Source: Myxococcota bacterium | GTDB lineage: Bacteria; Myxococcota_A; Bradymonadia; UBA4248 | Length of the DNA: 54,554 nucleotides | Direction of reading: 5' to 3' | NCBI GenBank assembly: GCA_045599585.1 | Contig: JAZRWH010000137.1 | Location: 1-54,554, forward strand | Shown here: piece by piece, positions 5,955 through 54,436 of the stretch | How the letters are laid out: every line of letters starts with the position of its first letter | How positions within the stretch are numbered: position 1 is the first letter of the stretch | Made by a program: the position numbers and the translations under genes | The notes under the pieces: model-generated | The model's input: the letters and a program-made list of their open reading frames with translations, nothing else | Database searches by the model: none | Told to the model about the DNA's origin: nothing

Positions 5955-6055
5955 GGGGGTAGCGGCGTATTAGCGAGCGCCAAGGGCTGCAGACCCGCAA
6001 ACGCAAAAGTAGCCTTTGGCGATCGCTGATAGACGCTCAGGGGGAGACCTCCCCC
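5955..6055 (+). repeat. REP-like palindromic element copy A (GGGGGTAGCGGCGTAT ... ATAGaCGCTCAGGGGGAGACCTCCCCC, 58-bp middle)
   Basis: Read directly from the sequence. Both arms are shared with copies C, F and H. Confidence 0.85.
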
Positions 6056-6144
6056 TCAAAATTCATCTCTATTCTAAAAATCACTCAGAAAGGCGTATCT
6101 CAATCGCCTTTTTTTATATTTTCAGCCAAACAAGGCATCATTTT

Positions 6145-8112
6145 ATGCATTTTAAGATCCACTCTCCCTTTGCAGCATGCGGCGATCAACCCGAAGCCAT
6201 CGACAAACTGGTCGAAGGCATTGAGTCTGGACGCAAAGCGCAAACGCTTCTCGGCATTACTGGAAGCGGCAAAACGTTTACCATCGCATCCGTCATTGAA
6301 CGCGTTCAACGCCCAACACTCGTCATTGCCCCCAACAAAACGCTCGCGGGGCAGCTATTCACCGAGCTAAAAGAGCTCTTTCCCGAAAACGCTGTCGAGT
6401 ACTTCATCAGTTATTACGATTATTATCAACCCGAAGCTTTTATTCCAGCCTCGAACACTTTCATTGAAAAAGACGCCCAGATCAACGACGACATTGAACG
6501 CATGCGACTCGCAGCAACACACAGTCTGCTCACGAGAAACGACGTTATCATCGTCGCAAGCGTTTCGTGCATCTACGGCTTAGGCACCGCCGAGGCCTAT
6601 CTCAACATGCGCGCTAGCGTTGAAGTCGGTCAGGAGATTTCGCGCGATGAATTTCTCAAACAGCTCGTCCGCATCCAGTACGAACGCAACCAGTACGAAT
6701 TGACGCGCGCATCGTTCCGCGTTCGCGGCGATACCGTCGAAGTCTTTCCCGCCTACGAATCAGAACTCGCGATTCGCATTCAGTTTTTCGGTGACGAAGT
6801 CGACTCCATCCAAGAAATCGACCCCGTACGCGGCAGCGTGTTGAGAGACATCGACAAGATTTCGATTTTCCCAGCAAGTCATTACGTCGTGAGTGAAGAA
6901 ATGAAACGTAAGGCGCTGATGAGTATTAAGGAAGAATTGAGCGAGCGCATTGAGTTTTTTAGAAGTCAAAACATGTTTGTAGAGGCACAGAGGATTGACG
7001 AACGCACGACAGAAGACATCGCAAACATCGCAACGATGGGCTACTGCCAAGGCATCGAAAACTACTCGCGCCATCTTTCGGGCCGTGCACCAGGCGAAGC
7101 ACCGCCCTGTTTGCTCAACTATTTTCCCGAAGAATTTCTAATGGTCATCGACGAATGCCACGTTTCTGTACCACAAATCGGTGGCATGTACAGAGGCGAT
7201 CGTTCGCGTAAACAGACGCTCGTCGACTACGGTTGGCGACTCCCCAGCGCCCTCGACAACCGCCCGCTCAACTTTGACGAGTTTTCGGCACTCGTAAACC
7301 AAGTCATCTACGTCAGCGCAACGCCAGGCGACTACGAGATCGAGCAGTCTGAAGGCGAAGTGATCGAACAGATTATTCGCCCGACAGGCCTCCTGGATCC
7401 GCTCATCACAGTCAAACCGGCTGCCGGCCAGGTTGACGACGCCGTCGAAGAGATTCGCGTCATAACGTCTCGTGGAGCGCGCGTCCTCGTCACCACGCTT
7501 ACCAAAAAAATGGCGGAAGACCTCAACGAATATCTAAACGAAACCGGCGTACGCTCTCGTTATCTGCACTCCGACGTCGAAACACTGGAACGAGCTGCTC
7601 TGTTACGTGACCTCCGCCTCGGTGTTTTTGACGTACTCGTCGGCATCAACCTGCTCCGCGAAGGCCTCGATCTCCCCGAAGTCGAACTCGTGTGCATCTT
7701 GGACGCCGACAAAGAAGGTTTTTTGCGAAGCCGCCGCTCCCTCGTCCAAACCATTGGACGCGCCGCACGCAACGCCAATGGACGCGTCATCATGTACGCC
7801 GACAAAATGACCGACTCGATCCGCGCTGCACTCACCGAAACACAAACGCGACGCGCCATCCAAAATGCCTTTAACCTCGAGCACGGCATCACCCCAAAAA
7901 CGATCATTAAACCCGTCCAAGACCTCGAAAAGCACGTTCCCGACTATCAGCCCGACGCTGACAAAGCCGAAGACGAACGTACACTCCAACCCGACATTCC
8001 TGATCGCATTCAAAAGCTCCGCGCTGAAATGCGCGATTGTGCCAAACGCCTTGAGTTCGAACAGGCCGCTGTTCTCCGAGACCGCATCGCAGCCCTCGAA
8101 AAACGCCTCTGA
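6145..8112 (+). CDS. uvrB: excinuclease ABC subunit B
   Basis: [19 protein letters not shown]...[10 protein letters not shown]...YYDYYQPEA matches the UvrB N-terminus and helicase motifs. The C-terminus has the UvrB/UvrC interaction coiled coil. The track ORF from 6016 adds a non-homologous extension that overlaps a REP-like repeat. Confidence 0.95.
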
Positions 8113-8336
8113 TCCTCCCTTCCCAAACGATTCTTTTTTGGCGCGGGCTATGTGCTTCGCACATACGCCCGACGCGCGCTCGCTATTTCAGGCTTCGCCT
8201 TCAATACGCAGCGCACCTTCTTCGTTGCCCTTGATATCAATAAGAATAATCGTTAAAATTGTATCCAGTCGCGTCTGATTGACTTTTTTTATTAAACGCG
8301 ACACAGCGCATCCACGCGCCAAACGACAAGGGAGTT

Positions 8337-11156
8337 ATGCTTATGAGATTCGAGAAGCGCTTTTGTATTTTATGCGCCGCTGCCGCTGTACTTTGGACAG
8401 GCTGCTCCGACAATGCTTCCGTGACAACCAACACAAATCGTGATGATTGCGAAAAAACAGATTCCTGTGATGATCCAGGGGATCTCCCCTTCGATCCCTC
8501 AACCCTCGGCGATCCCTGCGGCGATGAAAACGGTATTGCTCGCTTCGTATCAACCGAAGCCGTATGCTCTGTCGAAGATATCCTGGTCTCTTATGGATGC
8601 TCGGAATACACTGATGCTGTGCTCAACGGCAGATGCCCCCGCTTTTACGAATGCCTTTATAGCCAAACTGACCGCGTCTATGAGTGCTCACTTGACGGCT
8701 GCAGTAACCTTAACGAGTTTAAACACGAAGGACAATGCATCGCTGAATCGGTTGAACAATGCGGCGCTATTGATAAATCCTGTGCCGAACTCGATGGCTG
8801 GAAAGCTGGCGAATGCTCAATGCATCAATGTATCGCCTCTGAATGCAAAACAGGCTTTAGACTTGAGGATGGAACCTGTAAGCCCAACTTGGCCGAAGAT
8901 TGCCACGCTGATGAGCATTTCAATTACGTTTTGAATATCTGTGAACCCGATGAAACCGAAAATTGCGGCTCCTCAGGCATCAATTGTACAAAACAACTAG
9001 GCTGGGTCTCGGGTAGCTGCCAAAAAGGCTCATGTATTGCCGATACCTGCAGCATCAACTTCGAACTTCAAGATGGTTTTTGCAATCCTTGCTCCGTCGA
9101 CACGCACGTCTATCAGCAAGACCCCGATTCAAATCAATACATCTGCGAAGCAAACTCGCTTACAGCCTGTGGATCTCACGATAACGATTGCACCGCACAA
9201 ACTGGCTGGAAAGACGGTCAATGCAGCAACAGCCAGTGCGTTCCAAGCGCATGTCAAGATCACTACACGATCGTCGGAAATACCTGCGTCGCCGAAACGT
9301 GTGATGCAGGCTATCACCCCAACCTTTCAACAAATACCTGCGTCCAAGACGATACACACAACTGCGGTGCTACCGGCTTAGATTGTGCGACCAATACTTA
9401 CGGCTGGGACGATGGCGTTTGTACAAACGGCCTCTGCGAAGTCATCGCTTGCAAAACAGGATGCGAACTCCAAAATGGCATCTGTACGCCCTGGTACGAA
9501 AGTTCTTCTGAATGCGCTGTCGTCTGTGATGCCTCCGGGTACGCCGACATCGTCTTCGAAGGCAAATCTATCCGCGCTAAATGTATCGAAACGGCTGAAG
9601 ATCTGATTGCCCTCCGCGATGGCATCAACAGCTTAGCTAGCTACACCGAACCTTGGCCGGCCGAAAACACCGATCATGCTTATATCCTTATGAACGACAT
9701 CGACCTGGGTGAACAACCTGCCTGGGATTCCATCGGCAACGCAGCCCTCGAAAATAGCCCCATGTTTTACGGAACATTTTTGGGCAATAATAAAACGATT
9801 AGCGGCACCATAACATGTACCACCAAATATTGTGGCCTTTTTGGAGAACTCTATCGCGGACGCATCGACCGAGTCATTTCAAACGTCAATCTCAACTACG
9901 ACATCGACTATATCGTCCAACACCCGGTCGATGAATACGTCAAAGCTGCCGGCTCCCTCGTCTCATTTTCAATGTATTCCACGGTTTCAAACAACGTCGT
10001 CAACGGCAATGTTACACAAATCGTCATGGATCCCAATAACGAAGTTCTCCATGAAGAGGGGGATTGGTTCGATCTCGGAGGCATCATCGGTTACGCCGAA
10101 AGTTCCATCATCCAAAACAACACGTTCACGGGCAGCATTAAAGCCAAAATCCATCGCAATAATTACGTTGGGGGTATCTTGGGCGGCCACCAACGAAAAG
10201 CGCTCAACACCATTGATAATTGCCACTTTAAAGGCAAAATTGCCGTTGATCGCGAAACCCGATTTACAAACTTTTCATCTTCAATGGCTACAGGCGGTAT
10301 TTGCGGTTACTGCCGCGGTACCCTCAACAATTCCACATCTTCGGGTGAAATCAACGCTTTCACACAAATTGGCGGCATTGCAGGCGATTTCTTCGGCGAC
10401 TCTTCGATGAAAAATAACGTCTTTACCGGAAGCATTAAAGCACTCGACGGCTATGCAGGCGGTATCGTCGGCATCAGTGCTTTCAGCAGCTACCTCGGCA
10501 AAACTTATTCCATTACCCTCGATTCTAACGTCTATATGGGCAGCATTGACTTTGCAAATGAAGGCGGTCTTTATCCTAAATATGCTGCGGGTATCATGGC
10601 CGGCATTATCGGCTCCGTTCCAACGGGCGAACGTATCATGTTTGTCAACAACGTGACTGCGGGGAGCATCCAAAACGCCGACAAAGCCTCCAGTATCTTT
10701 GCAAACTTCGGCGCAACCTTTGCCAACAATGCACAAAATGGCTCCATCATCGCCTTCCGTAACAACTGGAGCTCCATTCGGTTTAATCAAACGAAAGCCA
10801 GTGATGCGCTTGCAATCTTTGATTGTCCAAGTGGCACAACTTGTCCGACAGATTTGATCGTCACTTACGGCAACTACGTTTTGGACACGCAACTCTCTGG
10901 TGCTTCAGAAAATGCTACCTCAGCCAATACACTCAACTTTAGCGAACCTGACGCATCTAACCTCATCGATATGGTTTGGACAGGTTCTACGGGTAAACTC
11001 TACCCACTCATTAACCGCATGAACCTCCAGTCAATCTACAGTGTCAAATGGCACAATATGCTTTGCACACAGTCTATCGATACGCTTGATACCGTCCTCG
11101 ACGGCAATCACCGTCTACCACTCCCCATCGAAGTATCCCCGGACATCTGCAAATAA
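8337..11156 (+). CDS. cysteine-rich surface lipoprotein with GLUG-like (GGIxG) repeats
   Basis: The lipobox is LWTGC. The N-terminal half carries at least 4 modules of CGxxGxxCxxxxGWxxGxCxxxxCxxxxC. The C-terminal half carries repeated FTGSIKA...GGILGG / IGGIAGDF / AGGIVGIS motifs typical of GLUG-type domains. Confidence 0.75.
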   Translation: MLMRFEKRFCILCAAAAVLWTGCSDNASVTTNTNRDDCEKTDSCDDPGDLPFDPSTLGDPCGDENGIARFVSTEAVCSVEDILVSYGCSEYTDAVLNGRCPRFYECLYSQTDRVYECSLDGCSNLNEFKHEGQCIAESVEQCGAIDKSCAELDGWKAGECSMHQCIASECKTGFRLEDGTCKPNLAEDCHADEHFNYVLNICEPDETENCGSSGINCTKQLGWVSGSCQKGSCIADTCSINFELQDGFCNPCSVDTHVYQQDPDSNQYICEANSLTACGSHDNDCTAQTGWKDGQCSNSQCVPSACQDHYTIVGNTCVAETCDAGYHPNLSTNTCVQDDTHNCGATGLDCATNTYGWDDGVCTNGLCEVIACKTGCELQNGICTPWYESSSECAVVCDASGYADIVFEGKSIRAKCIETAEDLIALRDGINSLASYTEPWPAENTDHAYILMNDIDLGEQPAWDSIGNAALENSPMFYGTFLGNNKTISGTITCTTKYCGLFGELYRGRIDRVISNVNLNYDIDYIVQHPVDEYVKAAGSLVSFSMYSTVSNNVVNGNVTQIVMDPNNEVLHEEGDWFDLGGIIGYAESSIIQNNTFTGSIKAKIHRNNYVGGILGGHQRKALNTIDNCHFKGKIAVDRETRFTNFSSSMATGGICGYCRGTLNNSTSSGEINAFTQIGGIAGDFFGDSSMKNNVFTGSIKALDGYAGGIVGISAFSSYLGKTYSITLDSNVYMGSIDFANEGGLYPKYAAGIMAGIIGSVPTGERIMFVNNVTAGSIQNADKASSIFANFGATFANNAQNGSIIAFRNNWSSIRFNQTKASDALAIFDCPSGTTCPTDLIVTYGNYVLDTQLSGASENATSANTLNFSEPDASNLIDMVWTGSTGKLYPLINRMNLQSIYSVKWHNMLCTQSIDTLDTVLDGNHRLPLPIEVSPDICK

Positions 11157-11170
11157 TTCAATCTAACTTA

Positions 11171-11198
11171 ATCCTCGCGCTTGCGAGGATTTTTTTTT
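11171..11198 (+). terminator. rho-independent terminator after the 8337..11156 gene
   Basis: ATCCTCGCGCttGCGAGGAT followed by T8. Confidence 0.8.
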
Positions 11199-11220
11199 GC
11201 ACAATGCAGTGCAAATCGGG

Positions 11221-11292
11221 GGCGGCGTATTATCGATGCATCGCAGCGATAAAGCCGCACCGCCTTCGCGTATTGGCAAAGCCAATAGCGAA
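11221..11292. repeat. two adjacent core-type hairpins (GCGGCGTAT...ATAAAGCCGC; GCGTATTGGCaaaGCCAATAGCG)
   Basis: Read from the sequence. Lies downstream of the 8337..11156 terminator. Confidence 0.65.
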
Positions 11293-11370
11293 GGCCACAT
11301 CACATCGTCAAAAATTGCTCTACCCCCCTATCCGCACTATACTGAACCGCCGTCTTTTGCGGCATGATGC

Positions 11371-14300: not shown

Positions 14301-14604
14301 CCTCTTGTTTGGTCAATACGATCTATACACGCAGCTGCAATACACGGCGCTCTTAGCTGAATTTCAAGCGGGCATGACAAACTTCCCACTCGGATTTAAC
14401 CGCTTGGGCGCGGCAGTTCAGTTCGACATGGGTATGGCTTGGACGAAGCGATTACGCCGAAACGATCTGCGTTATTCTGTCGGTGCTGAGGTCTATCTTG
14501 ACGGCATGGTAGCTTATCATCTACCCTTTAGAGTTTCTTACGGCTTCGCACGTGGGCTGGCCGATGAAGGTGAAAGCTATCATTACTTTTTGCTATCGTG
14601 GTAG
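11371..14604 (+). CDS. large envelope protein: signal peptide, TolB/PD40-like beta-propeller region, acidic linker, probable C-terminal beta-barrel
   Basis: A signal peptide is followed by ALA-ED. WSQDGKRVFYS and PAVGNDGSLLFTEFSANGSYIAA are PD40-like blades. There is a DDNEDDEDEDDEDESD acidic run. The C-terminal roughly 500 aa is rich in alternating aromatics and ends in W. Confidence 0.6.
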   Translation: MEFSLSRLGLKQVFTALLWHFLMLVAPIVALAEDDPWTERNSEHFTIYYPANRAAFAELVLTKAEKVYERLSDLLDSQMEDRVDIHIEVKRDEALPCNQSVTETSMIITAWPDPDKILGRGQGDWLEQQIAHNLAHILTLNTSSMSGFLKQLLGVIAHNNRYAPTWYMEGVAKYFETPDNPGQSIRQPAFRALVEAMARADLIPSLGQLNAGTRHWPADQSNTLFGAAFIEKIARDFGEEIFGQWNLEYARDMVPFSIQRTARLVLGNNWDVFYDAWRKKIKLIAQERPYTDEVSSRIVLTGAWRNDRVRAVPNANKISYVRDDGLHPRAIVVLDLDTKTEQRITECQGWCEHHWSQDGKRVFYSTLVNVDDMELIQRVYVYDLEKHTRSRIAIPDHVRSFTLDGDRMWAAVMKDDINELYELNVETEFATPKKLLQTEPFERMDGLDAYQNSLVTSIFDPHTSVVHLERIDLTPEGAVRVPISLNDVDHIHPIWLDTGNILYIRSDVWSEEVWVVSRDGKYETRLTRMAEGVSHPAVGNDGSLLFTEFSANGSYIAAIPENELKAITEPWIKSILEAEQAAAISPTDNDNAPTTTDFFIETTKNNVETEISIFIHQVLNFMDALGITLPLHNAADFFIETIIAENDSVVSEVEGMDVSENNLSSDKTSALSAESMNSLDDNEDDEDEDDEDESDLIKDDLNSLFDISHTASSLFEEAQPYQVWRQLVPSIYTPLLNYTENSGVGIGFLIGGEDVLEYHKYDIHFDYYTAINAFDTAFNYIWTQYAWDLGAGTGMDQRTVLWSVENEYRYLNYVTYWAELYTQRDWHFPTLDLALELKYRTEYSRPLDQSTWNAHDNNEDPVRLPQLGWTSALMAKLELSKKYKAERTFVDFTGFAFTTYLRIEAPFLGAEDYTFINEFQLITRVPMPYLETHVLGMTIQGGYAYSENETRQPFEILSASGFSFNDDNVQLHGYRRGLLFGQYDLYTQLQYTALLAEFQAGMTNFPLGFNRLGAAVQFDMGMAWTKRLRRNDLRYSVGAEVYLDGMVAYHLPFRVSYGFARGLADEGESYHYFLLSW

Positions 14605-14701
14605 CTCTAATGTGTCGCTTTCTCACGCATGTTATTTACAAAACATGCCCGCACCATAAAGACAATTCATAGATCCAACTAATTTTACGGATTAAATATT
14701 A

Positions 14702-16120: not shown

Positions 16121-16175
16121 GGGGGGAAGTCTCCCCCTGAGCGCCTATCGCCTACGGCGATACAGCGCTACCCCC
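16121..16175 (-). repeat. REP-like element copy B, inverted orientation, short loop
   Basis: GGGGGAAGTCTCCCCCTGAGCGcCTAT-cgcctacggcg-ATACaGCGCTACCCCC. Confidence 0.85.
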
Positions 16176-16396
16176 TCACGGCTCCACACATGCAACAATC
16201 AGCAACCTTTTTGTCATACCCTAAATAAAGCAATAAAAACTAAGAGTAACCCATTTAAGACTCTTGCTGATTGAAAACATATTCATAATGTAGGTATTTA
16301 TGCTACCATATCGAACTGTGTTCGATGCTGCATGTACCTCACACATGCATCTCCCACAAAACACAACCTTTCTAGCTTTTGTCTGGAGAATTAAAT

Positions 16397-17587: not shown

Positions 17588-17589
17588 TT

Positions 17590-18345: not shown

Positions 18346-18348
18346 TCT

Positions 18349-21803: not shown

Positions 21804-22002
21804 AAATTAATACTGTTTTTCACAAAATTAAACCATAATTTTGCAAAAACCATGAACAGTATCGACACATCCCCCAATAAAAATCGCATCATTACATGTT
21901 ATATCTGATGTTTTGTATCAGACTTATTATTACAATTTGCAAAATATTCTAGGGCTTTATTTGCGAATTTTACCTAACAAACCCTAGTGGAGTTTGATCG
22001 AA

Positions 22003-23480
22003 TGGAAACACTTTATTTTGACTGTCAAATGGGAGCAGCTGGCGACATGATCACAGCAGCACTTTTGGATCTCTTTGATAACCCCGAAGCTGTGATCTGC
22101 GAGCTAAATCAAATTGGCCTGCCAGGTGTCGAATTCAGTCACTCCAAAGTCGAAAAATCCGGTATTTCGGGCATGCAAGTAACCATTAAGGTCAATGGCA
22201 TCGAAGAAATCTGCGAAGATGTCAAAGCACATTATGAGCATCATGCCCACGCGCACCACCATTGCCACGCGCACAACGAACACGAACATTGCCATGAACA
22301 TGAGCATTGCCACGAACACGAACATTGCCACGTACATGGGCATTGTCACGAACATGAGCATTGCCACGAACATCAGCATTGCCACGAACATGGGCATTGT
22401 CACGAACATGAGCATTGTCACGAACATGAGCATTGCCACGAACATGAACATTGCCACGAACATCAGCATTGCCACGAACATGGGCATTGTCACGAACATG
22501 GGCATTGTCACGAACATGGGCATTCACATGAACATCACCACGCTACGATGAACGAAATCTATGCAATCGTTGATGCACTCAATATCGACGATTCTGTGAA
22601 AGCAAATGTACGTGCTGTTTATGAAATCATCGCAGAAGCCGAGAGCCACGCTCATGGTGTTCCTGTCACAGAAGTACATTTTCACGAAGTCGGAACGATG
22701 GATGCGATTGCCGATATTACGGCCGTTTGTTTATTAATTCACAAGCTTAACCCCAAACAGATATTGTGTTCGCCGATTCATGTCGGAAGTGGCCATGTTC
22801 ACTGCGCACACGGCATTCTTCCGGTGCCAGCGCCTGCTACGGCCTTCATTTTACGTGGCATTCCTGCGTACGGCGGAGAGGTCAATGGCGAATTGTGTAC
22901 ACCGACGGGAGCGGCAATTGCTAAACATTTTGCAAACAAATTCTGCTACATGCCCATGATGAACACCAAACGCGTAGGCTACGGCATGGGCAAAAAGACT
23001 TTTGAACGTCCTAATTGTGTACGCGCATTTTTAGGAAATACAGAAGATAATTCTGAAATCATCTGCGAGTTAAGCTGTAATCTTGATGATATGTCAGCAG
23101 AAGCGATGGGATTTGCGCAAGAGCGTCTTATGGAAGAAGGGGCTTTGGATGTATTTTCCACAGCAATTGTTATGAAAAAATCGAGACCCGGCTATATGCT
23201 GACGATTCTTTGTAACACGAGTGATCGAGAACACATCCTCAAAACCATCTTTGCGCATACCACGACGATCGGCGTTCGAGAAAAACTATGCCAACGATAT
23301 GTTTTAGCACGAGAGATACAAACGGTTTCGCTGCCGGAAGGGGAGGTTCGGATTAAAAGATCAACGGGGTACGGCGTTGAACGATCTAAAGCGGAATATG
23401 AAGATTTAGCTCGTATTGCAAAAGAGCGAGGCGTTTCGCTGAAAAGTATCGAAGAAGAAGTCATGAAAAAGAGATCGTAA
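22003..23480 (+). CDS. larC: LarC nickel insertion protein (DUF111 family) with expanded His/Cys-rich repeat
   Basis: METLYFDCQMGAAGDMITAALLDLF matches the LarC N-terminus; the track ORF starts at GTG 21987. There is an internal (HEHEHC)n metal-binding repeat. The C-terminal CTP-binding LarC2-like portion is present. Confidence 0.85.
22255..22545 (+). repeat. about 15 tandem 18-bp units (CACGAACATGAGCATTGC and variants) encoding (HEHEHC)n inside larC
   Basis: Period-18 direct repeats are visible. Translation is HCHEHEHCHEHEHC... The antisense ORFs at 22104..22523 and 22222..22527 are artefacts of this repeat. Confidence 0.9.
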
Positions 23481-27791: not shown

Positions 27792-27836
27792 TCTCTCACG
27801 CTGCGTGCTTTGTATAATACAAAGCGCACAACGCAC

Positions 27837-27897
27837 GGCGTATTGGCCTCGCCAATAGCCGCGCGGCTCTGGCGTATTGGCATCGCCAATAGCCAGA
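27837..27897. repeat. tandem pair of core-only hairpins GGCGTATTGGC-nnn-GCCAATAGCC
   Basis: GGCGTATTGGCctcGCCAATAGCCGC followed by CTGGCGTATTGGCatcGCCAATAGCCAG. Confidence 0.8.
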
Positions 27898-27952: not shown

Positions 27953-28005
27953 GGGGAAGGCCTTCCCCTGAGCAGCTATTGGCAAGCCAATACGCTGCTA
28001 CCCCT
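27953..28005 (-). repeat. REP-like element copy D, diverged (GGGGAAGGCCTTCCCC head; AGCaGCTATTGGCaaGCCAATACGCtGCT core)
   Basis: The architecture is the same but with base substitutions. The core equals the core-only hairpin consensus. Confidence 0.7.
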
Positions 28006-28086
28006 TCTGGCCGCAGCGCCTTAATATAGTTTATCAAAGATTCCCTTATCTAATTCCATTGCGGATAATTACAAAAAAGGTACGAA

Positions 28087-29356: not shown

Positions 29357-29388
29357 AAAGACGCTCATAACGAGCGTCTTTTATTTTA
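29357..29388 (+). terminator. rho-independent terminator after pepT
   Basis: AAGACGCTCataaCGAGCGTCTTTTATTTT. Confidence 0.8.
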
Positions 29389-30063: not shown

Positions 30064-30095
30064 ACAAAAAAAGCCCGGCATTAATCCGGGCTTGC
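30064..30095 (-). terminator. terminator for flotillin gene (also closes convergent NUDIX gene)
   Basis: On the minus strand AAGCAAGCCCGGATTAATGCCGGGCTTTTTTT: a GC hairpin followed by T7. Confidence 0.8.
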
Positions 30096-31924: not shown

Positions 31925-31978
31925 GGGGGAAGTCTCCCCCTGAGCGGCTATTTGCAAAGCAAATACGCCGCTACCCCC
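31925..31978 (-). repeat. REP-like element copy E, between nfeD-like and flotillin genes
   Basis: GGGGGAAGTCTCCCCCTGAGCGGCTATTTGCaaaGCAAATACGCCGCTACCCCC. Identical to copy G. Confidence 0.9.
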
Positions 31979-32107
31979 TCTAGCCTGCGGCGCATCCAGT
32001 TATGAACAACCCAAACAACGATCTTATTCATCCAGCCTGACCCACAAGACGCATGAACAAACCCTTACGAAGCCTTCGAATGAAACGTAATATTTCAGCC
32101 GAATCAC

Positions 32108-32764: not shown

Positions 32765-32901
32765 TCAGACCTCCTTCTCATTGTCCTTGAAAGATCAAAT
32801 TTGAGTCTAGCAAACATCCCCTTTTGTGACAAGCGTTTCCAACGTCACCCAAATGCGCACGAAGCGTCCCCTGTACCCTTGTATTACAATTAAACTTGAG
32901 A

Positions 32902-33021
32902 GGGGGTAGCGGCGTATCAACTTCGCGATACAAACGCTTGCAATATGAATTATGATTGGCAAATCTTTACAATCATTCAACCCACGCGAAGGTGATAGCC
33001 GCTCAGGGGGAGACCTCCCCC
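32902..33021 (+). repeat. REP-like element copy F (about 80-bp middle)
   Basis: GGGGGTAGCGGCGTAT ... ATAGCCGCTCAGGGGGAGACCTCCCCC. Confidence 0.85.
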
Positions 33022-35687: not shown

Positions 35688-35752
35688 CGTTGGCTTTTAG
35701 GCGCACAGCGCCTAAATACGCCAACGCGCGCGGCTATTACATACGCCGCGCA
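35688..35752. repeat. two GC-rich hairpins of the same core family after ypfJ-like gene
   Basis: GCGTTGGCttttAGGCGCacagGCGCCTaaatacGCCAACGC and GCGCGGCTATtacATACGCCGCGC. Confidence 0.65.
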
Positions 35753-35795
35753 GTATTTTATATGTATTGCTTGAACGCTATTTAAAAATGTTTAC

Positions 35796-40549: not shown

Positions 40550-40587
40550 GAGCGATGCTATCGTGAACGATACGCATCGCTTTTTTT
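40550..40587 (+). terminator. rho-independent terminator after Xaa-Pro aminopeptidase
   Basis: GAGCGATGCtaTCGTgaaCGATACGCATCGC followed by T7. Confidence 0.75.
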
Positions 40588-40727
40588 ACGCGCGTCTTCT
40601 CGGCGCATAGCGCCTCAATACGCCGCGCGAGCGCTGCGCGCTTTTATGCATAATCATTCAACATTTATGTAAAGCTTAGATAAATATTACAAATTCTAAA
40701 TTCATTCACCTAAACGAACACAATGCA

Positions 40728-42450: not shown

Positions 42451-42527
42451 AGGCCGGCGTATTGAACGCGCATCAGCGCGTGAGAAGCCGGCCCAAGGCG
42501 CGTCGTATGCCGAAGGCATAGACGTGC
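42451..42527. repeat. GC-rich hairpin pair (GGCCGGC...GCCGGCC; CGTATGCCgaaGGCATAGACG) related to the core family
   Basis: Read from the sequence. Confidence 0.55.
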
Positions 42528-45603: not shown

Positions 45604-45743
45604 TCTATAACTCCTCCTAGATCTTGATGCTCTGCATATCTGCAACATTGTTGCAGATATGCACAAATTGCGTTTTACGCTTACAAGTAGTCATTGTCAA
45701 ATTGAGAAATAGCATTCAAGTTCAGATAGGAGCGCATTAAAGA

Positions 45744-45780
45744 AAAAGCCGCGTATCTCGGTTAGAGATAGCGGCTTTAT
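45744..45780 (-). terminator. terminator of the MFP-RND-TolC operon
   Basis: On the minus strand TAAAGCCGCTATCTCtaaccGAGATACGCGGCTTTTT. Confidence 0.75.
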
Positions 45781-45781
45781 T

Positions 45782-45845
45782 CTGGCGTATTGGCGTGAGC
45801 CAATAGCCAGAAGCGCTGGTCGTATCGGCAGAGCCGATAGACGCG
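45782..45845. repeat. core-type hairpins CTGGCGTATTGGCgtgaGCCAATAGCCAG and GTCGTATCGGCagaGCCGATAGACGC
   Basis: Read from the sequence. Adjacent to the terminator of the efflux operon. Confidence 0.75.
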
Positions 45846-45876
45846 CAAACAATATATAAGAAATAGATGTTATGAA

Positions 45877-47571: not shown

Positions 47572-47728
47572 ATATGAACTCCATTGAATTGGAATTTGAG
47601 TCTGACCTTTAAGCCAAAAACGTTTGAAACGTTCACAATAGCCTTTATACAAGGCCACTGAGAACGTTTCATAGTGGAATTATATTCCAAAACAGCGTTT
47701 TTAAGCAAAGGTTAGTAGTTTAAGCGAT

Positions 47729-50700
47729 CTAACCTTTTGAAGCAGCTGCCTTCATTTGAGCCATACGTGCGGCTTCAGCAGGTGTCAATCTTGGTCTATC
47801 GTCGCCTTCATCTTCGTACTCCTGAACCTCACGCGATTTTGAAGCGAAGATAGAGTACATAACGGGAACGAAGAAGAGGGTGAAGAAGGTAGAGAGTGTA
47901 AGACCACCGATAACGGAGGTACCCATACCAGCCCAAGCTTCGGAGCCTTCACCGAGTTGGAGCGCAAGCGGAACCATGGAAAGAATGGTTGTAAGAGCGG
48001 TCATCATAACCGGTCGCATACGCGTACGGCCAGCGCTAACGACAGCCGTGATTTTGTCCATACCCTTGTCACGATTTTGGTTGGCGGCGTCAACGAGAAC
48101 GATACCGTTGTTAACGACGATACCCGCAAGCATGATCAAACCAATGAGACCCGAGATATCAAGCGTACGTCCTGTAATTAAGAAGATGCCGACAACACCG
48201 ATGACCATGAGCGGAATCGTGAAGAGAACGATAAACGGTTCACGATAGCTTTCGAACTGAGATGCCATAACCGCGAAGACCAGGAAGATCGAGACCAAAA
48301 GTGCGACACCAAGGTATTTGAATGAATCCTGGAAATTCTCGGCAGTACCGGAAACCGCGTACGTCCATTCAATACCTTTTTCAGCATCAGCTTTCATCTG
48401 TTCATTTAACCAATCCTTCATTTCGCCGATGGTCTTATCCAAGTTCTTTTTAGAGACCTCGGAAGCGTCAGGAGTTTCTTTATAGGTATTGGCGAGCGTC
48501 AAGCTGACTTTTTGGTAACGTTCCTGATTTTTACGTTCGATTGTTGTAGGCGCAAGGTTTTCGTAAACGTCAGCAACCGTGCCAAGGGGAACCGTACCGC
48601 CAGAGCTAATCTGGATCGGCATATTCTCGACTTCGTGAATATCGTTACGGAACTGGCGATCATAGCGTACGACGATATCATACTCATCGCCGCCTTCGAG
48701 ATATTCGGAAGCGTTGAAGCCGCGGAAGAAGATGTAAACCAAATTCGAAACGGTACTTGACGTGATGCCCAATTCAGACATTTTCTCACGATTGTAGTCG
48801 ACTTGGATTTGCGGTTTTTGTTCATCGACCGAAAGTTTAACCTCAGAGACATCAGGACGCGTGAGAGCATAACGCTTAATGCGGTTCGTAATCGTACGTG
48901 TAACCTGAATATCGTCGTAATAAACTTCGATATCGATATCACCGCCACCACCGCCACCGGGGCCGCCACGGCCAGAAACCTGATACTCAATACCAGGGTA
49001 ATCCTTGAGCGCATTACGTGTGGCATCAATGATCTCGGTAATCGGTCGATCACGGAATTTAGGTTTAACAAGCGGAACACGAATGGTAGCGGTATTTACG
49101 CCATTCCCGAACAGGGCGCCCATACCCGAGTCAGCCGAGCCAGCGTCGACCGAAACCATTTTTCGTTCAGATGCCGGAATGACTTTTTTAACGATATCGC
49201 CAACTTCTTCTGCGATTTGATAAGTCGTACGCGCATCGGTACCCATTTCGGTCGTAATCTTTACCGTCAAAAATGAGTCATCAGAAGTCGGCATAAATTC
49301 TGTCGGAATTTTTGTAAAACCAAAGCACGCCAGTGCAAACAATCCCGTTATAGCGAGCACTACGAGCCAACGAACTTTAATGCAGCCACGAAGGAAGTTT
49401 TCATAACCGGCTTTGATACGATAGCCCAACGTCTGTTTCTGTTCATCATCAACTTCATTAAGATCGTCGACCTGCTTACCAGAGTTAGCAGCAATAACCT
49501 TATCAAATTTCGAGCTTTTCAACATGTAGTACGACAGCATCGGAACAAAGGTAATTGCCACGATAAGGGAAATCGTCAAAGCAACGCAGATCGTAACGGA
49601 CATATCGTGGAACATCATACCAGCGATACCGGGGACGAACAGAATCGGCAAGAATACTGCGATTGTCGTCAACGTCGAAGCTGTAATAGCCATGATGATT
49701 TCCTTGGCACCACGCGTACAAGCCTGGAACGCCGTATCACCTTCTTCACGATGGCGGAAGATATTCTCGAGCGTAACGATCGCGTTATCGACGAGCATAC
49801 CGACTGCGAGTGAAAGACCAGCCATCGAAATGACGTTTAGAGTCATACCCAACTGAGCCATGACACCTAAAGTTGCCATAAGGGAGATCGGGATAGCCGT
49901 CGCAACGATAAGAGACGTCGTAATGCTTTTGAAAAACGCTAACAAAACGAAGAATACGATAATAACTGCGAGAATGATCGTTTCTTCGAGGTTGGCAATC
50001 GAGCTCTGAATAAACTCAGCCTGATTTCGGACAATGTTGTAGCCGAGCTCGGGCGTATCCTCAAGTACCTTCGGAATCTCTTTCAAGAGGCCGTTCGCAG
50101 CTTCAACCGTATTTGCACCGGACTGTTTAGAAGCGAGCATAAAGACAGAAGATTTGCCGTTGACGTTCGTAAAACGGCGTGTTTCTTCAATTGTATCTTC
50201 AATTTCGGCAACATCTTTGAGTCGGATCGGAATCATTCTGCCTTTGTCATCGGCGCCCATGCTTAACAAGACTTCGCCAACTTCATCGACCGAACGGAAC
50301 TTACCGCTTGTTTGAATATTCAGGTCTCGACCAGAAGCTTCGATGTATCCACCAACTGACTGAGCATTTTCTGCAGCGAGAACACCAGCAATTGTTGCAG
50401 CAGAAATATTGTACGCTTCAAGTTTTTGCGGGTTAAGACGAACGTGAATCTCACGAAGCTCGCCACCAGCAATTTCGACTGACGAAATACCCGGAACGCG
50501 TTCCAGTTTAGGTTTAATACGGTCATCTGCGATCTTACGGATCTGTGAAGCCGGTAAATCACCCGTCAGGTTGAACATGACAATCGGTTCCATGGAGGGA
50601 TCGAGTGCCAAAACCATTTGGGAGTTATAGTCATCAGGCAATGCACTTTTAACGAGATCGAGTTTATTACGCGTATCGATCTCCGCCTGATTCATGTCGT

Positions 50701-50995
50701 AGCCCCAATCGAATTCGAGCATAACGACACTCACGTTTTGTTTTGACGTCGACATGACGTTTTTTACACCCGTTACCGAAACCGCCGTTTGCTCGATCGG
50801 GCGTGACAACAGCGTCTCCACGTCTGCCGGGCTTGCACCAACATACGTCGTCATAACCAAGACGTACGGAATATCCATGTCAGGATACAAGTCAAGCTGC
50901 AGTCTGAAGAACGAGAAAATACCGAACGCAATGACGACCGTATAGATCATCGTCATTGTGACTCGGTTCTTTACTGAATACCCAGGAATACTCAT
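47729..50995 (-). CDS. RND (AcrB/HAE1-like) inner-membrane efflux pump
   Basis: 1,088 aa with a 12-TM architecture and two large periplasmic loops. Motifs are AcrB-like. There is an unusual SGRGGPGGGGGGD glycine run. Confidence 0.9.
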   Translation of the reverse strand: MSIPGYSVKNRVTMTMIYTVVIAFGIFSFFRLQLDLYPDMDIPYVLVMTTYVGASPADVETLLSRPIEQTAVSVTGVKNVMSTSKQNVSVVMLEFDWGYDMNQAEIDTRNKLDLVKSALPDDYNSQMVLALDPSMEPIVMFNLTGDLPASQIRKIADDRIKPKLERVPGISSVEIAGGELREIHVRLNPQKLEAYNISAATIAGVLAAENAQSVGGYIEASGRDLNIQTSGKFRSVDEVGEVLLSMGADDKGRMIPIRLKDVAEIEDTIEETRRFTNVNGKSSVFMLASKQSGANTVEAANGLLKEIPKVLEDTPELGYNIVRNQAEFIQSSIANLEETIILAVIIVFFVLLAFFKSITTSLIVATAIPISLMATLGVMAQLGMTLNVISMAGLSLAVGMLVDNAIVTLENIFRHREEGDTAFQACTRGAKEIIMAITASTLTTIAVFLPILFVPGIAGMMFHDMSVTICVALTISLIVAITFVPMLSYYMLKSSKFDKVIAANSGKQVDDLNEVDDEQKQTLGYRIKAGYENFLRGCIKVRWLVVLAITGLFALACFGFTKIPTEFMPTSDDSFLTVKITTEMGTDARTTYQIAEEVGDIVKKVIPASERKMVSVDAGSADSGMGALFGNGVNTATIRVPLVKPKFRDRPITEIIDATRNALKDYPGIEYQVSGRGGPGGGGGGDIDIEVYYDDIQVTRTITNRIKRYALTRPDVSEVKLSVDEQKPQIQVDYNREKMSELGITSSTVSNLVYIFFRGFNASEYLEGGDEYDIVVRYDRQFRNDIHEVENMPIQISSGGTVPLGTVADVYENLAPTTIERKNQERYQKVSLTLANTYKETPDASEVSKKNLDKTIGEMKDWLNEQMKADAEKGIEWTYAVSGTAENFQDSFKYLGVALLVSIFLVFAVMASQFESYREPFIVLFTIPLMVIGVVGIFLITGRTLDISGLIGLIMLAGIVVNNGIVLVDAANQNRDKGMDKITAVVSAGRTRMRPVMMTALTTILSMVPLALQLGEGSEAWAGMGTSVIGGLTLSTFFTLFFVPVMYSIFASKSREVQEYEDEGDDRPRLTPAEAARMAQMKAAASKG

Positions 50996-51283
50996 TCTAA
51001 CCTCTGTTGTGGATTAAATGACGATTATCTTTCTTGATATAAATTATGTCATCGAAGACAAGCTTGTTGTAGCAATTTATACCAAAACATATCGTCAGCA
51101 ATTAATACTTTTGTGTATTTGAACAGAAACATAACGCTCAAATACCCTATTTTACAATTTATGCCTTATAAATATTTCCTTTTCAGAACACTAAAGCGGC
51201 AGCAAATCACAAAAAAGGCGCGCAATGAGTTGATTTAGACATCTGCGCGCCCTTACGATCATATATTCATTGAATAAATAATA

Positions 51284-52528
51284 CTAAGTGCCTTCAGCAG
51301 CTTCAGGAGCATCACCTGTGGACGCTGCAGGCGCATCTGCGACAGGTGCATCCTTGGCTGCAGGCGCTGCTGCAACGGTATTATTATCCGTCGTGGTACC
51401 GACGTGAACTTTATCGCCATCTTTAAGGGAGTGATGACCTCGCGTGATCAATTTGTCGCCAGACTTCAAACCACTTAAAACTTCAATAACATCGCCACTA
51501 TACTCCCCTACACTAACCTCGACAGCGTGTGCTATATTATTAGAATCCATGACGAAGGCACGTCTAAGCGTCTGACCGGCAAGCTGCTTTTTAAGCAATT
51601 CAGCATCAAGAATGAGTGCCGAAGGAGGCACAACGATCGCATCATTCGTCGTGGTCAAGCTGATTTCAGCGCGAGCATACATACCGGGTTTATATTTATA
51701 CAAACCATTTGATTCGAGCTTAACGTTTTCAAACTGTGCTTCCAAGGTATTCGTACGTGTCGACGAGTTAATGTACGGCATGATGCGAGTAACTTTTGCG
51801 ACGACAACTTCTCCCGGGAACGCATCAAAGCGAAGGCGGACATCTTGCCCCATCTGGAGGTACTGCGTGTCTTCTTCGTTGACATTAAGCGTAACTTTGA
51901 GCGTCTGAAGGTCATTAAGAACACAGAGCGCCATGGCTGAAGATGCGATATCGCCAACTTCTGAATTCTTATTGCTGATAACACCGTCGATCGGAGCTAC
52001 GACGCGCGCATAATCAAGACCGAGTTTCGTTTGTTCCTGCGTCGCCAAAAGCTGCTGTTTCGTTGCCAAAAGCGTCGTTACACCGTCCTGAGCCTGATCA
52101 AGTGTCTGACGACTGACGATGTTCGATTCAAACATACTGCGAACACGTTTAAGTTCTCGTTCGGCAGCTTGAAGCTGGGCATCCACACTCTTGATCTGTG
52201 CATTAAGTGCATCTAAACCCTTTTTTGAGACTTCATTACGGATTTCCGCAATAACCTCGCCTTTCTGCACAAAATCCCCATTTTCCCAAGGGAATTTCAA
52301 AATGCGCTCACTTGCCAACGGGATGACCTTAACCATCTTCGCAGCTGCTATGTTGCCTACGTACGTTCGCGTGCGCGTAAAACTCGTCGTCGTGACATCC
52401 TGCGTTAAAACAGCGGTATCACTGACCTGCTCGCTCATTGCGCCTGAACTCTCTTCCTCTTTGTTGCACGCGACTACACTCAAACTCAATGCTGCCATCA
52501 TGGCTATTAAAAGGCTTATTTTTCGCAT
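51284..52528 (-). CDS. RND membrane fusion protein (AcrA/HlyD family) lipoprotein
   Basis: The lipobox is SVVAC. Alpha-hairpin and beta-barrel regions are present. The C-terminus is A/P-rich. AGGAG SD. Confidence 0.8.
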   Translation of the reverse strand: MRKISLLIAMMAALSLSVVACNKEEESSGAMSEQVSDTAVLTQDVTTTSFTRTRTYVGNIAAAKMVKVIPLASERILKFPWENGDFVQKGEVIAEIRNEVSKKGLDALNAQIKSVDAQLQAAERELKRVRSMFESNIVSRQTLDQAQDGVTTLLATKQQLLATQEQTKLGLDYARVVAPIDGVISNKNSEVGDIASSAMALCVLNDLQTLKVTLNVNEEDTQYLQMGQDVRLRFDAFPGEVVVAKVTRIMPYINSSTRTNTLEAQFENVKLESNGLYKYKPGMYARAEISLTTTNDAIVVPPSALILDAELLKKQLAGQTLRRAFVMDSNNIAHAVEVSVGEYSGDVIEVLSGLKSGDKLITRGHHSLKDGDKVHVGTTTDNNTVAAAPAAKDAPVADAPAASTGDAPEAAEGT

Positions 52529-52546
52529 ATTCTAAGTCTCCTTATT

Positions 52547-52573
52547 CCTATATGTCTTATACCCCCATATAGG
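52547..52573. promoter_or_regulatory. perfect 8-bp inverted repeat CCTATATG-n11-CATATAGG 20-45 nt upstream of the RND MFP start codon; candidate repressor operator
   Basis: Seen in the sequence. It sits between the AGGAG SD of the MFP gene and the upstream REP copy G. Confidence 0.4.
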
Positions 52574-52920
52574 TTTTATCGCTTATTTCGAGTTCTAGCA
52601 ACCACTAACACCTACATTAAATCACATAGATCTTATCTCGTGCCAAAACTGTTTTAAAACAATGACTATCTTTCGATTATTCCCTGCCGAAATAAAAAAT
52701 CGACATTTTGCTGTGAAAACGTGCGCATCCCTGCACCTTCCATCCCACCGAATCGCTTTCATCAGCTATTACGCTCGCTGCTTCCTACGAATTGCAGCAA
52801 CCCCATAACATTTAGAATCTGATTTTTATTTAATCAACGAAAAAAAACTGCAATTTTCTTCGTTTTCTTCCTAATCTCTTCTTCAAACAACGCCTGCTTG
52901 ATCCTAGGATGAAGCGAGGA

Positions 52921-52974
52921 GGGGGAAGTCTCCCCCTGAGCGGCTATTTGCAAAGCAAATACGCCGCTACCCCC
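52921..52974 (-). repeat. REP-like element copy G (identical to E)
   Basis: A 54-bp sequence shared with 31925..31978. Confidence 0.9.
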
Positions 52975-52991
52975 TCAAGCAATCAAATTAA

Positions 52992-54185
52992 TTAATAATG
53001 TTTAGATAGAAATTCAAGCGCACTTTGTGCCAACAATTTTGCCCCACCGTACAACGCCGCTTCGTCAACGTGAAAATGATCGTTGTGCCAAGAATAAAGA
53101 GTTTCCCCACGCTGACGTGACCCTAGCCAATAAAAGAACCCTGGAACAGACTGCATATAATCAGCAAAATCTTCTGTAGCCATCCCAGGTTCACACGTCA
53201 CCAAATGGCCTTCGCCGAAAACTTTTGTTGCTGCCTGTTTGGCAATCTCCGTCATGGCTTCATGATTGATTACAGCCGGAACTTCTTCATCAATAACAAA
53301 ATCAGCGGTACATTCGTACGTGTCGGCGGTTGCATGTACGACAGTCTTAAGCCTTTCAAGTGCTCTTTTGCCGACCTCCGGATCATGAAATCGCATACTG
53401 CCCGTCATTTCAACTTTGTCGACGATCAAGTTCATCGGCGTTCCGCCATGAATCGAACAAATAGACAAAACGAGCGAACGCATCGGATCAACATTACGTG
53501 CTGGAATCGTCAGTACTCCCTGCACGATTGCAGCTGCACAGACGATCGGATCAACGCATTTATGTGGCATTGAACCATGACCGCCAACGCCATGAACTGT
53601 AATGCTAAAGTTGATCTTAGCCGCCATGAGTGGTCCAGATTGAACGACGACCTTGCCTGTTTCTACTTCGGGACGGTTGTGAAGTCCAAAAATACCTTCA
53701 ACGGCATAATTCGTAAGAACGCCACGCGCAATCATTTCACGTGCACCATTTGTCGTCTCTTCCGCAGGCTGAAAAATAAAAATAACGCTTCCTTGGAGTG
53801 AAGCACGTACACCCGAAAGGAGCTTAGCTGCACCGAGCAAAGCTGTTGTGTGAAAATCATGACCGCACAAATGTCCTTTGCCTTCGATCTTACTTTTCCA
53901 AGGAGATGGCCAGCATTCACAAACGTTCAAAGCATCAATATCGGCGCGCAGAGCTACACAGCGACCTGGCAATGCCCCACACAAACACGCCGCAACGCCT
54001 GTTTTCATCCCCAAATCAATAAGCTCAATACCGTCTATTTTGCATAACTCATCCTTGATCAATTGCGTCGTATTGAATTCTTCCCACGACGTTTCAGGAT
54101 ACTGATGAATTTGACGTCTAATCTCTAACAGCGCTTGAACCTCATCTACAGACAATTCAGGTAAAACATTCATTATAAATTCCAT
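52992..54185 (-). CDS. M20D amidohydrolase (N-acyl-amino-acid amidohydrolase / hippuricase-like)
   Basis: IRRQIHQYPE...GHDFHT...motifs are typical of M20D. The start may be MNVLP at 54173. Confidence 0.85.
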   Translation of the reverse strand: MEFIMNVLPELSVDEVQALLEIRRQIHQYPETSWEEFNTTQLIKDELCKIDGIELIDLGMKTGVAACLCGALPGRCVALRADIDALNVCECWPSPWKSKIEGKGHLCGHDFHTTALLGAAKLLSGVRASLQGSVIFIFQPAEETTNGAREMIARGVLTNYAVEGIFGLHNRPEVETGKVVVQSGPLMAAKINFSITVHGVGGHGSMPHKCVDPIVCAAAIVQGVLTIPARNVDPMRSLVLSICSIHGGTPMNLIVDKVEMTGSMRFHDPEVGKRALERLKTVVHATADTYECTADFVIDEEVPAVINHEAMTEIAKQAATKVFGEGHLVTCEPGMATEDFADYMQSVPGFFYWLGSRQRGETLYSWHNDHFHVDEAALYGGAKLLAQSALEFLSKHY

Positions 54186-54387
54186 TCACAACAAAAACGG
54201 AACTTACCCAGAATAAACTGTTTATTGAGGGCATCGTTTCGAAAACTCAGCTTAGTCTAACATACACAAGCTTTCTGTGCTACGTTATACGCCAATTGAT
54301 GAGCAGAGAGTTTTCGAGGATTTATTCTAAAGATTTACAGTGACGCGAACGTCCTTCAGACGACGCTTGTTGACGCCTACGGCAAGA

Positions 54388-54436
54388 GGGGGTAGCGGCG
54401 TATTTGCTTTGCAAATAGCCGCTCAGGGGGAGACGG
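54388..54436 (+). repeat. REP-like element copy H, truncated at the 3' G5/C5 hairpin where the IS30 end begins
   Basis: GGGGGTAGCGGCGTATTTGCtttGCAAATAGCCGCTCAGGGGGAGAC is followed by GGAAAATTGTCA (IS terminus) instead of (C/T)TCCCCC. Confidence 0.7.

Follow-up and report, generated by a model that had tools for sequence, protein, structure and literature searches.

What kind of element is a GC-rich palindromic repeat that lies eight times between the genes of a single contig, in both orientations? The question is raised by contig JAZRWH010000137.1 of the Myxococcota assembly GCA_045599585.1 (Bradymonadia, UBA4248), whose 54,554 nucleotides we call the window. A preliminary description had reported a dispersed structured repeat with eight copies on both strands and had likened it to the repetitive extragenic palindromes (REPs) and bacterial interspersed mosaic elements (BIMEs). 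We favour, with a probability of about 0.45, the reading that it is a dispersed DNA repeat acting through a single-strand fold, composed of hairpins and a probable purine-motif triplex, and that it spreads in a hairpin- or single-strand-dependent way without target duplication. Each copy would be a non-coding, non-autonomous repeat that works as a structure of one strand and not as a gene.

Copies and anatomy of the repeat

The unit reads GAGGGGG-TAG-P2-CTCA-GGGGGAG-loop-CYTCCCCC. P2 is a covarying hairpin, 26-92 nt long in the window, with the conserved base AGCGGC-G-TAT ... ATA-GCCGCT, in which the G is bulged. Its interior ranges from 11 to ~80 nt and is always self-complementary beside the base. 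The 3' hairpin P3 (GGGGGA/TCCCCC) has a loop of 2-6 nt, which is AC in the window unit and GC in copy D. The unit delimited in the preliminary description is present, but the conserved unit begins 2 nt earlier, at GA. The hypervariable middle that had been placed within a bulged stem does vary in its interior; the middle segment itself, however, is a covarying hairpin.

The left-arm 16-mer GGGGGTAGCGGCGTAT, with up to 3 mismatches, had 8 matches in the window against 0.21 expected from shuffles, and the right-arm 27-mer had 6 against 0 expected. A covariance model was built on an alignment of 27 diverse copies and run over the window with the filters off. It gave the same eight copies as the reading of the sequence, and only these, at 46-75 bits; the rest was noise. 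Four copies lie on the plus and four on the minus strand, at a density of one per 6.8 kb (8 in 54.5 kb):

5953..6055, plus strand: copy A, long form, P2 of 73 nt, 56.4 bits; between the stop codon of an S41 peptidase gene (5895) and the uvrB start (~6145)
16121..16177, minus strand: copy B, short form, P2 base with the compensatory changes GCGCT/GGCGC, 68.8 bits
23683..23788, plus strand: copy C, long form, 53.6 bits; downstream of a larC-like gene (21987-23480)
27953..28007, minus strand: copy D, variant GAAGGGG ... GGGGAAG-GC-CTTCCCC with a three-way coordinated change, 65.8 bits; between pmbA/tldD and an M20 peptidase gene, beside two stand-alone GUAU hairpins (27836-27895)
31925..31980, minus strand: copy E, minimal unit of 56 nt, 74.6 bits; in the nfeD-flotillin gap
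31980-31974, 31973-31971 and 31970-31945, minus strand: GAGGGGG, TAG and P2 of copy E, with the bulged G at 31966
31944-31941, 31940-31934, 31933-31932 and 31931-31925, minus strand: CTCA, GGGGGAG, AC and TTCCCCC of copy E
32900..33021, plus strand: copy F, long form, P2 of 92 nt, 56.9 bits; in the divergent nfeD/matE gap
52921..52976, minus strand: copy G, identical to E, 74.1 bits; 17 nt past the stop codon of an M20 peptidase gene
54386..54434, plus strand: copy H, equal to E and G as far as GGGGGAGAC and broken in the 3'-hairpin loop, 46.1 bits
54435..54554, minus strand: end of an IS30-family element inserted into copy H; its transposase C-terminus runs off the contig

The pairing of P2 and P3 was analysed in the 27-sequence alignment. 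In the two helices 98% of the cells were paired, compared with ~55-64% when the partner was slid, and double-sided changes were found in 15 cells against 2.6 in shuffles. In plasmid L172 the pair A19:T70 is replaced by C:G. The predicted RNA folds lie well below those of shuffled controls (z = -2.5 to -6.2). RNAfold gives two near-equal folds: P3 forms in one of them, and the other is closed as a whole by the 5' G-tract, which pairs with the C-tract in place of the P3 arm.

Such folds, and conserved junctions around freely covarying stems of variable length across phyla and mobile elements, would also suit a structured RNA. This could be a small RNA, a cis-regulatory element or a self-cleaving ribozyme, multi-copy in some genomes like twister or hammerhead. 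Tertiary contacts would involve the conserved single-stranded nucleotides, and a switch would arise from the rivalry of the two G-tracts for a single C-tract. We consider this doubtful. Rfam 15, searched at the gathering threshold and at E <= 10, has no family that matches the elements, with twister, hammerhead, pistol, hatchet, HDV-like and tRNA among those covered; the lone match in the window was the tRNA-Gly at 13-84. A tRNA-like reading of GGGGGUAGC...GCUCAG was dropped, as ARAGORN and Rfam gave only this real tRNA-Gly. Further evidence on both sides comes from the tracts and the gene contexts below.

Intrinsic terminators and integron attC sites were also rejected. A terminator scan of 15-34 kb called none of the copies B to F, which lack a T-tail; the 3' flank starts with (T/A)C(C/A)C and continues as an A-rich stretch without a T-run. 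This stretch is not the complement of the T-run of a neighbouring terminator either, since no consistent hairpin lies beyond it. Canonical bidirectional intrinsic terminators, each a perfect hairpin preceded by an A-run and followed by a T-run, are present at 29357-29381 and 30071-30093, so the genome uses ordinary terminators beside the repeats. For attC, the cores RYYYAAC ... GTTRRRY are missing from the sequence, and the neighbours are large housekeeping genes in mixed orientation.

Mirror relation of the flanking tracts

The first feature missed by the preliminary description is that the 5' G-tract mirrors the 3' hairpin's purine arm, which gives the layout of an intrastrand triplex. GAGGGGG is the mirror image, not the complement, of the P3 purine arm GGGGGAG, and the complement CTCCCCC comes after the loop. 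In a purine-motif triplex the third strand runs antiparallel to the duplex's purine strand and forms G*G.C, A*A.T and T*A.T triads; in an intrastrand triplex of class I a 5' reverse-Hoogsteen block is followed by the purine and then the pyrimidine block (PMC4666352).

The common form GAGGGGG / GGGGGAG / CTCCCCC gives 7/7 allowed triads, and so does copy D with GAAGGGG / GGGGAAG / CTTCCCC. The same coordinated change is found in the plasmids L174 (Haematobacter) and L183 (Phenylobacterium), whose P2 hairpins are unrelated. In plasmid L170 the tract is GTGGGGG and the A.T pair is unchanged, which results in the allowed T*A.T triad. Copy D and these three plasmid variants keep 6/6 or 7/7 allowed triads. 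The tract lengths also shift together: L038 has G6 / G6 / C6 and one subfamily has GAG6 / G6A / TC6. Antiparallel Watson-Crick pairing of the 5' tract with the C-tract and its flank fits copy D by inspection but fails for L174 and L183. Watson-Crick pairing cannot account for the way in which the 5' tract is related to the pyrimidine arm, as a mirror and in parallel, and this speaks against the structured RNA.

We infer from this layout that the 5' tract, antiparallel to the P3 purine arm, could lie in the major groove of P3 and form G*G.C and A*A.T triads as a class I purine-motif intrastrand triplex. P2 would then be a clasp that sets the 3' end of the third strand beside the 5' end of the purine arm. 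As a clasp, only its base would matter and the interior would be free to vary. Alternatively, the 5' tract may rival the purine arm for the C-tract in a two-state fold. RNA does not adopt the purine motif (PMC4666352), so the active form, if the triplex forms, would be single-stranded DNA (ssDNA). Replication forks, negatively supercoiled gaps or conjugative transfer could expose it.

The G-tracts could also act without a triplex. They may form G-quadruplexes in a switch with the hairpin, or the G5 tracts may be a double-stranded site for a G-box protein with the hairpin being incidental. The full-length forms described below have four G5 runs, and the lengths of the G-tracts shift together in the variants (G4/G4, G6/G6), as a quadruplex would allow. 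However, the short copies, including all eight in the window, have just two G-runs, the A positions outside the runs mirror-covary as well, which a quadruplex does not require, and compensatory conservation of a hairpin is not expected of a duplex binding site. We regard these possibilities as improbable.

Distribution, genomic contexts and plasmid relatives

To follow the repeat beyond the window, as the preliminary description had suggested, one genome per species was scanned for exact matches to GCTCAGGGGGAGACYTCCCCC. This gave at least 48 loci. In nearly all of them GAGGGGGTAG lies upstream, and the hairpin between the two arms differs but stays complementary. Among the matches listed are dozens of copies in CAMCLY01, a metagenome-assembled genome (MAG) labelled Myxococcales, several in a cattle-colon proteobacterial MAG, and single copies in Caulobacter, Phenylobacterium, Sphingomonas, several Treponema, Deinococcus xinjiangensis, a Spirochaetia MAG, Bacteroidaceae MAGs and Myxococcales MAGs. 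A gapped scan of metagenomes found at least 123 instances. In the CAMCLY01 MAG two complete elements stand in direct tandem with starts 69 nt apart (L003:5085-5204, plus strand). The conserved core is known from at least five phyla and from conjugative plasmids, so the repeat is neither genome-specific nor a strain marker as had been proposed; in other uncultured bacteria it occurs in dozens of copies. A HIP1-like GCGATCGC in one copy could suggest a cyanobacterial origin, but the protein relatives are gut "Proteobacteria bacterium" MAGs. A literature search by sequence strings returned nothing relevant. The motif is undescribed and no named family fits it; the nearest kinds are REP-like dispersed hairpin repeats and intrastrand-triplex repeats.

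The copies fall into three contexts, a dispersed type, a full-length type and others. The dispersed type, to which the window copies are similar, has a P2 of the GUAU type and no recurrent neighbour. Its 3' flank (L002-L169 and window copies A-F) is (T/A)C(C/A)C followed by 6-8 nt that are mostly A (60-77% A), and this flank is absent from the plasmid copies. The consensus of its 5' flank, GCA, matches the end of a module that the full-length type carries upstream of the core, GGGGGCG-TT-GCGGGGG-loop-CCCCCGC. The short copies look as if they were 5'-shortened derivatives of the full-length form. The two types are tied together by a full-length copy on the chromosome of an 86% relative of the window organism (L178:13504-13620, plus strand, and at the same position in L179). 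In this copy the module GGGGGTG-TT-GCGGGGG-CATG-CCCCCGC is joined to a P2 of the GUAU type, and the P3 loop is longer. A NUDIX and an M20 gene flank the copy and have it on their template strand. Treponema carries the full-length form in the chromosome, where it precedes secG on the same strand; the motif is thus not confined to plasmids, and this position would agree with a structured RNA.

Retroposition like that of a short interspersed element (SINE) would explain an A-rich tail, the scarcity of full-length copies (3/88 unique copies carry the upstream module) and a 5' flank GCA that equals the end of the upstream hairpin. It is unlikely, because neither a target-site duplication nor a nearby reverse transcriptase was found.

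The placement of the dispersed type was tabulated for 59 copies with callable neighbours. In tandem gene pairs 16 were in sense and 18 in antisense orientation, 20 were in convergent and 5 in divergent gaps. Gene 3' ends are thus favoured and no orientation is preferred. REPs likewise lie mainly between unidirectional and convergent open reading frames (ORFs) (PMC3733652). P2 is equally stable on both strands (31 vs 29), and G-U pairs are rare and show no strand asymmetry. The lack of an orientation preference and of a G-U asymmetry speaks against a structured RNA. The surroundings of 99 dispersed copies contained no neighbouring protein that recurs. Inverted pairs of copies around a 'master' gene were not apparent, as the orientation of neighbouring pairs is unpatterned, and a phage association was dropped because the one match in viral contigs is a chance tandem repeat.

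The copies are gained and lost between close relatives. Three window copies share an identical sequence; E and G, recognised early as identical 54-mers, are 21 kb apart, and H agrees with them as far as its break. The gap between the S41 peptidase gene and uvrB has no copy in one relative with 97% identical UvrB and in two relatives at 89%, and in relatives at 86% it has a copy in the opposite orientation. Copies E and F are missing from the orthologous gaps of the relatives compared. The likeness to REPs and BIMEs therefore held for the behaviour of the repeat, that is for copy number, position at gene 3' ends, both orientations, use as an insertion target and gain or loss between relatives with 86-97% identical UvrB.

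In the window all copies are intergenic, as had been stated; copy A touches only a TTG-extended ORF, and the real UvrB has 655 aa and starts ~90 nt downstream of it. The flanking genes are ordinary chromosomal ones (S41 peptidase, uvrB, larC, tldD/pmbA, M20 peptidases, NUDIX, flotillin/nfeD, matE, acrB/hlyD). The GC skew is negative over the whole contig (cumulative -2.16), yet the first 30 kb codes mostly on the plus strand. That the repeat is a target of insertion sequences (IS) was confirmed at copy H. From the junction with GGGGGAGAC (54434) to the contig end, the minus strand encodes the transposase C-terminus ...INQRPRKVLGWKTPEMVY and its stop codon, as translated from the sequence. The C-terminal motif RPRK.LG.KTP is typical of IS30 transposases. 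This element probably also explains the assembly break at the contig end.

When a full-length copy was compared by BLAST with PLSDB, 11 alphaproteobacterial plasmids were found; the window-type element had no BLAST match on the plasmids. In 8/8 readable plasmid contexts the adjacent genes use the motif's forward strand as their template, and the motif lies directly upstream of these genes or between them. They encode toprim, ParB-nuclease, ArdC or a zincin-like peptidase, SSB, DUF3768, and strawberry-notch (Sno) or a methyltransferase-helicase; toprim/ParB/DUF3768 neighbours recur in 13-14 metagenome loci. The plasmid-type P2 is more stable on the forward strand (25 vs 8, p = 0.009). This orientation speaks against the structured RNA, as the mRNA of the partner operon (opposite strand in 8/8) would carry the reverse complement. 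The adjacent genes are classic for the leading region of conjugative plasmids. Leading-region genes are encoded such that the transferred strand (T-strand) gets transcribed, and they are preceded by ssDNA signals of the Frpo/ssi kind (PMC11541004). The position of the plasmid relatives, on the strand that is transferred and serves as template, and immediately ahead of the anti-defence and primase genes of the leading region, fits an active ssDNA form.

Two further observations were made at these loci. A conserved small protein of ~110 aa (...EEAWVIATNPDFPIRARNVNWFLERGGSIKEVRL...FGYFGPITLSTDRQP) is encoded on the same strand ~190 nt downstream of the motif in plasmids L170, L172 and L180 and in 19 metagenome loci. 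It has no Pfam match and is always divergent from the toprim/ParB operon across the motif. In Tardibacter pHSL1 (L171:2468-4297) the ArdC gene region, near the motif in the leading region, is split by a reverse transcriptase/maturase of the group II intron type. The small gene, next on the same strand in the 19 metagenome loci, would be compatible with a structured RNA.

REP-like hairpins, spread and known systems

The second feature that had been missed is that the bulged inner stem is a separate hairpin family, which occurs alone in the window too. The inner module has the form outer stem-G-TAT-stem-loop-ATA-outer stem', with a bulged G. It is GC-rich and both stems covary freely. With a strict pattern 13 stand-alone modules were found in the window against 0 in shuffles, and with a looser reading more than 20. 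Many form tandem groups of two or three in the gaps that follow genes. Stand-alone GUAU hairpins lie at:

8145-8212, minus strand: stand-alone GUAU hairpins
11222-11291, plus strand: stand-alone GUAU hairpins
27836-27895, plus strand: stand-alone GUAU hairpins
35700-35760, minus strand: stand-alone GUAU hairpins
40555-40640, minus strand: stand-alone GUAU hairpins
42501-42524, plus strand: stand-alone GUAU hairpins
45747-45850, plus strand: stand-alone GUAU hairpins

The module resembles the CGTC-tagged REPs in having CGT, then a stem starting with AT, a short loop and a short tail; such REPs are typical of Alphaproteobacteria (PMC3733652). A relative (L049) carries the stand-alone module without a composite element in 16 kb, and in the long copies L007 and L022 from another MAG, GUAU modules are nested inverted within P2. 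Since the module is free-standing in the window and in this relative and is nested in P2 of long copies, the composite element uses the REP-like hairpin of its own lineage as P2. In cyanobacteria, very small repeats described by Elhai and colleagues in 2008 reportedly sit inside other hairpins and extend them. The nesting in P2 of L007 and L022 is similar, but other sequences and other taxa are involved, and here only the inner hairpin module is nested.

The whole repeat might then be an ordinary GTAG-tagged REP, with the G-tracts as family-specific flanks and a single-copy REP-associated tyrosine transposase (RAYT, a Y1 HUH enzyme) elsewhere that recognises GTAG and the hairpin on ssDNA and spreads the copies. 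Its effect in the cell would be the usual one, through hairpins at mRNA 3' ends or protein binding sites. GTAG abuts the palindrome directly on its 5' side in 8/8 window copies, as in the GTAG-tagged REPs mobilised by RAYT/TnpA-REP (Nunvar 2010; Di Nocera 2013, PMC3733652; Messing 2012), with which the repeat also shares the high copy number, the extragenic, tandem or convergent placement in both orientations, the lack of a target-site duplication and the presence of IS inserts. Like the GTAG-3 and GTAG-14 REPs, the repeat has a hairpin interior of variable length, and the short forms (P2 of 26 nt) fit the usual REP palindrome of 20-40 bp, which the long forms (73-92 nt) exceed. In copy H the IS sits in the hairpin loop. 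Insertion into REPs is known for IS1397 and ISPpu9/10.

Against a plain REP, the AG of GTAG is paired with CT in 27/27 sequences, whereas a REP tag is unpaired, and the G6 subfamily (GAGGGGGG-CGCGGC) has no TAG. REP families are confined to species or genera; here ~26 nt outside the palindrome, in the 5' G-tract and the 3' hairpin, are kept across phyla and plasmids, and the mirror covariation of these flanks would be left unexplained. The copies are mostly single, in contrast to head-to-head dimers or REPINs. No RAYT was seen in ~1.3 Mb around the copies; the 218-aa ORF between copies E and F, a candidate for a hidden one, encodes an NfeD-like membrane protein without an HUH motif. A plain REP is possible but, in our view, unlikely.

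Concerning the mode of spread, no classical terminal inverted repeats were found, as the ends of the element are mirror or asymmetric and not inverted. No target-site duplication was found either, the longest word common to the 5' and 3' flanks averaging 4.58 nt against 4.46 nt in the control. A miniature inverted-repeat transposable element (MITE) that depends on a DDE transposase was rejected for these two reasons. They fit single-stranded or hairpin-dependent copying, and we infer that copies may arise through an HUH/RAYT-like nuclease, or through template switching or conversion at hairpins, rather than through a DDE transposase. In the genome of the window, the repeat would have been amplified to ~1 per 7 kb, mostly behind genes, with the lineage's GUAU-bulge hairpin serving as P2.

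Several points weigh against the single-strand triplex fold and this mode of spread. The mirror covariation is based on ~4-5 independent variants, and L063 breaks the mirror rule (GAG5 vs G8/C7). The third strand is linked to the purine arm by 33-190 nt (TAG, P2 and CTCA), longer than the short loops (1-6 or 0-10 nt) of triplex motifs; the upstream module has such short loops (TT, 3-4 nt loop) and the same layout, but one of its positions is C*C.G, a non-canonical triad. The lengths of the G-tracts could co-vary for a G-quadruplex or merely for a competing hairpin, and the folding tools cover only Watson-Crick and wobble pairs, so that a triplex is beyond their scope. The orientation rule on the plasmids could stem from a single ancestral insertion in one plasmid backbone. 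No RAYT, primase or relaxase and no recurrent neighbour protein is linked to the dispersed copies, and four plus and four minus copies under a uniform GC skew show no replication-strand bias like that of IS200/IS605-type elements. Finally, no clean empty site could be aligned, since even a relative with 97% UvrB identity has intergenic DNA that is too diverged.

Two kinds of known signals are closest to this reading. The BoxC/PIT/TMECO repeats are intergenic, strand-unbiased and conserved in E. coli/Proteobacteria, their number varies between strains, and a class II triplex has been demonstrated for them (Hoyne et al. 2000; Holder et al. 2015, PMC4666352). The present repeat is likewise short, GC-rich, highly conserved, dispersed, intergenic and without strand bias, its copy number varies among close relatives, and it has a pyrimidine tract, the purine complement and a mirror purine tract on one strand in a G*G.C purine motif. 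TMECO, however, belongs to class II (Y-R-R, third strand 3') with 9-nt stems and 3-6 nt loops, whereas the layout here is of class I (third strand 5') with 7-nt stems. The 'loop' between the purine tracts is here a covarying hairpin of 26-190 nt, which a search restricted to 1-6 nt loops would not detect. Unlike TMECO, which was not found on mobile elements, the present motif is on conjugative plasmids. Its triplex is predicted from the layout of the tracts. There is no homology to the BoxC consensus CCCTCNCCC-N3-6-GGGNGAGGG-N3-GGGNGAGGG, from which block order, length and sequence differ.

The Frpo/ssi signals (Masai & Arai 1997; Samuel & Burstein 2024, PMC11541004) are similar in their address only, and only to the plasmid relatives, which have predicted hairpins in the leading region, on the template strand of ArdC/SSB/ParB/toprim genes and directly upstream of them. 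Frpo is a hairpin of ~300 nt that rebuilds -35/-10 boxes, whereas the motif here has ~100 nt, consists almost entirely of G/C and has no recognisable promoter hexamers, and the window's chromosomal copies lie outside any conjugative element. The oriT, IncQ ssiA/ssiB, ssoA CS-6 and the KorB operator do not match in block order or consensus.

A bolder extension, which we regard as rather improbable, is that the core is a triplex signal of ssDNA shaped like a paperclip. It would have evolved first on the transferred strand of a conjugative plasmid or integrative and conjugative element, upstream of an anti-defence/primase operon, as a mark for priming, polymerase pausing or protein loading. Later, it would have been amplified to hundreds of chromosomal copies in a few uncultured lineages by being grafted onto REP hairpins. 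If true, this would be a new class of functional non-B DNA element that joins conjugation biology with REP-like repeats.

Dispersed intergenic hairpin repeats are common and usually written off as lineage-specific. The present repeat differs in that its ~26-nt core is kept from spirochaetes to Deinococcus and on plasmids, that it is absent from Rfam, and that its flanks obey triplex rules with three-way compensatory changes. For genomics, these repeats and the IS elements that target them are places where MAG assemblies break, and an element with a hairpin as its loop is missed by triplex-motif searches restricted to short loops. Should the triplex form, the repeat would join BoxC/TMECO as only the second natural family of intrastrand-triplex repeats. 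It would be the first to have a defined biological address, in the leading region of conjugative plasmids, which would make its function directly testable.

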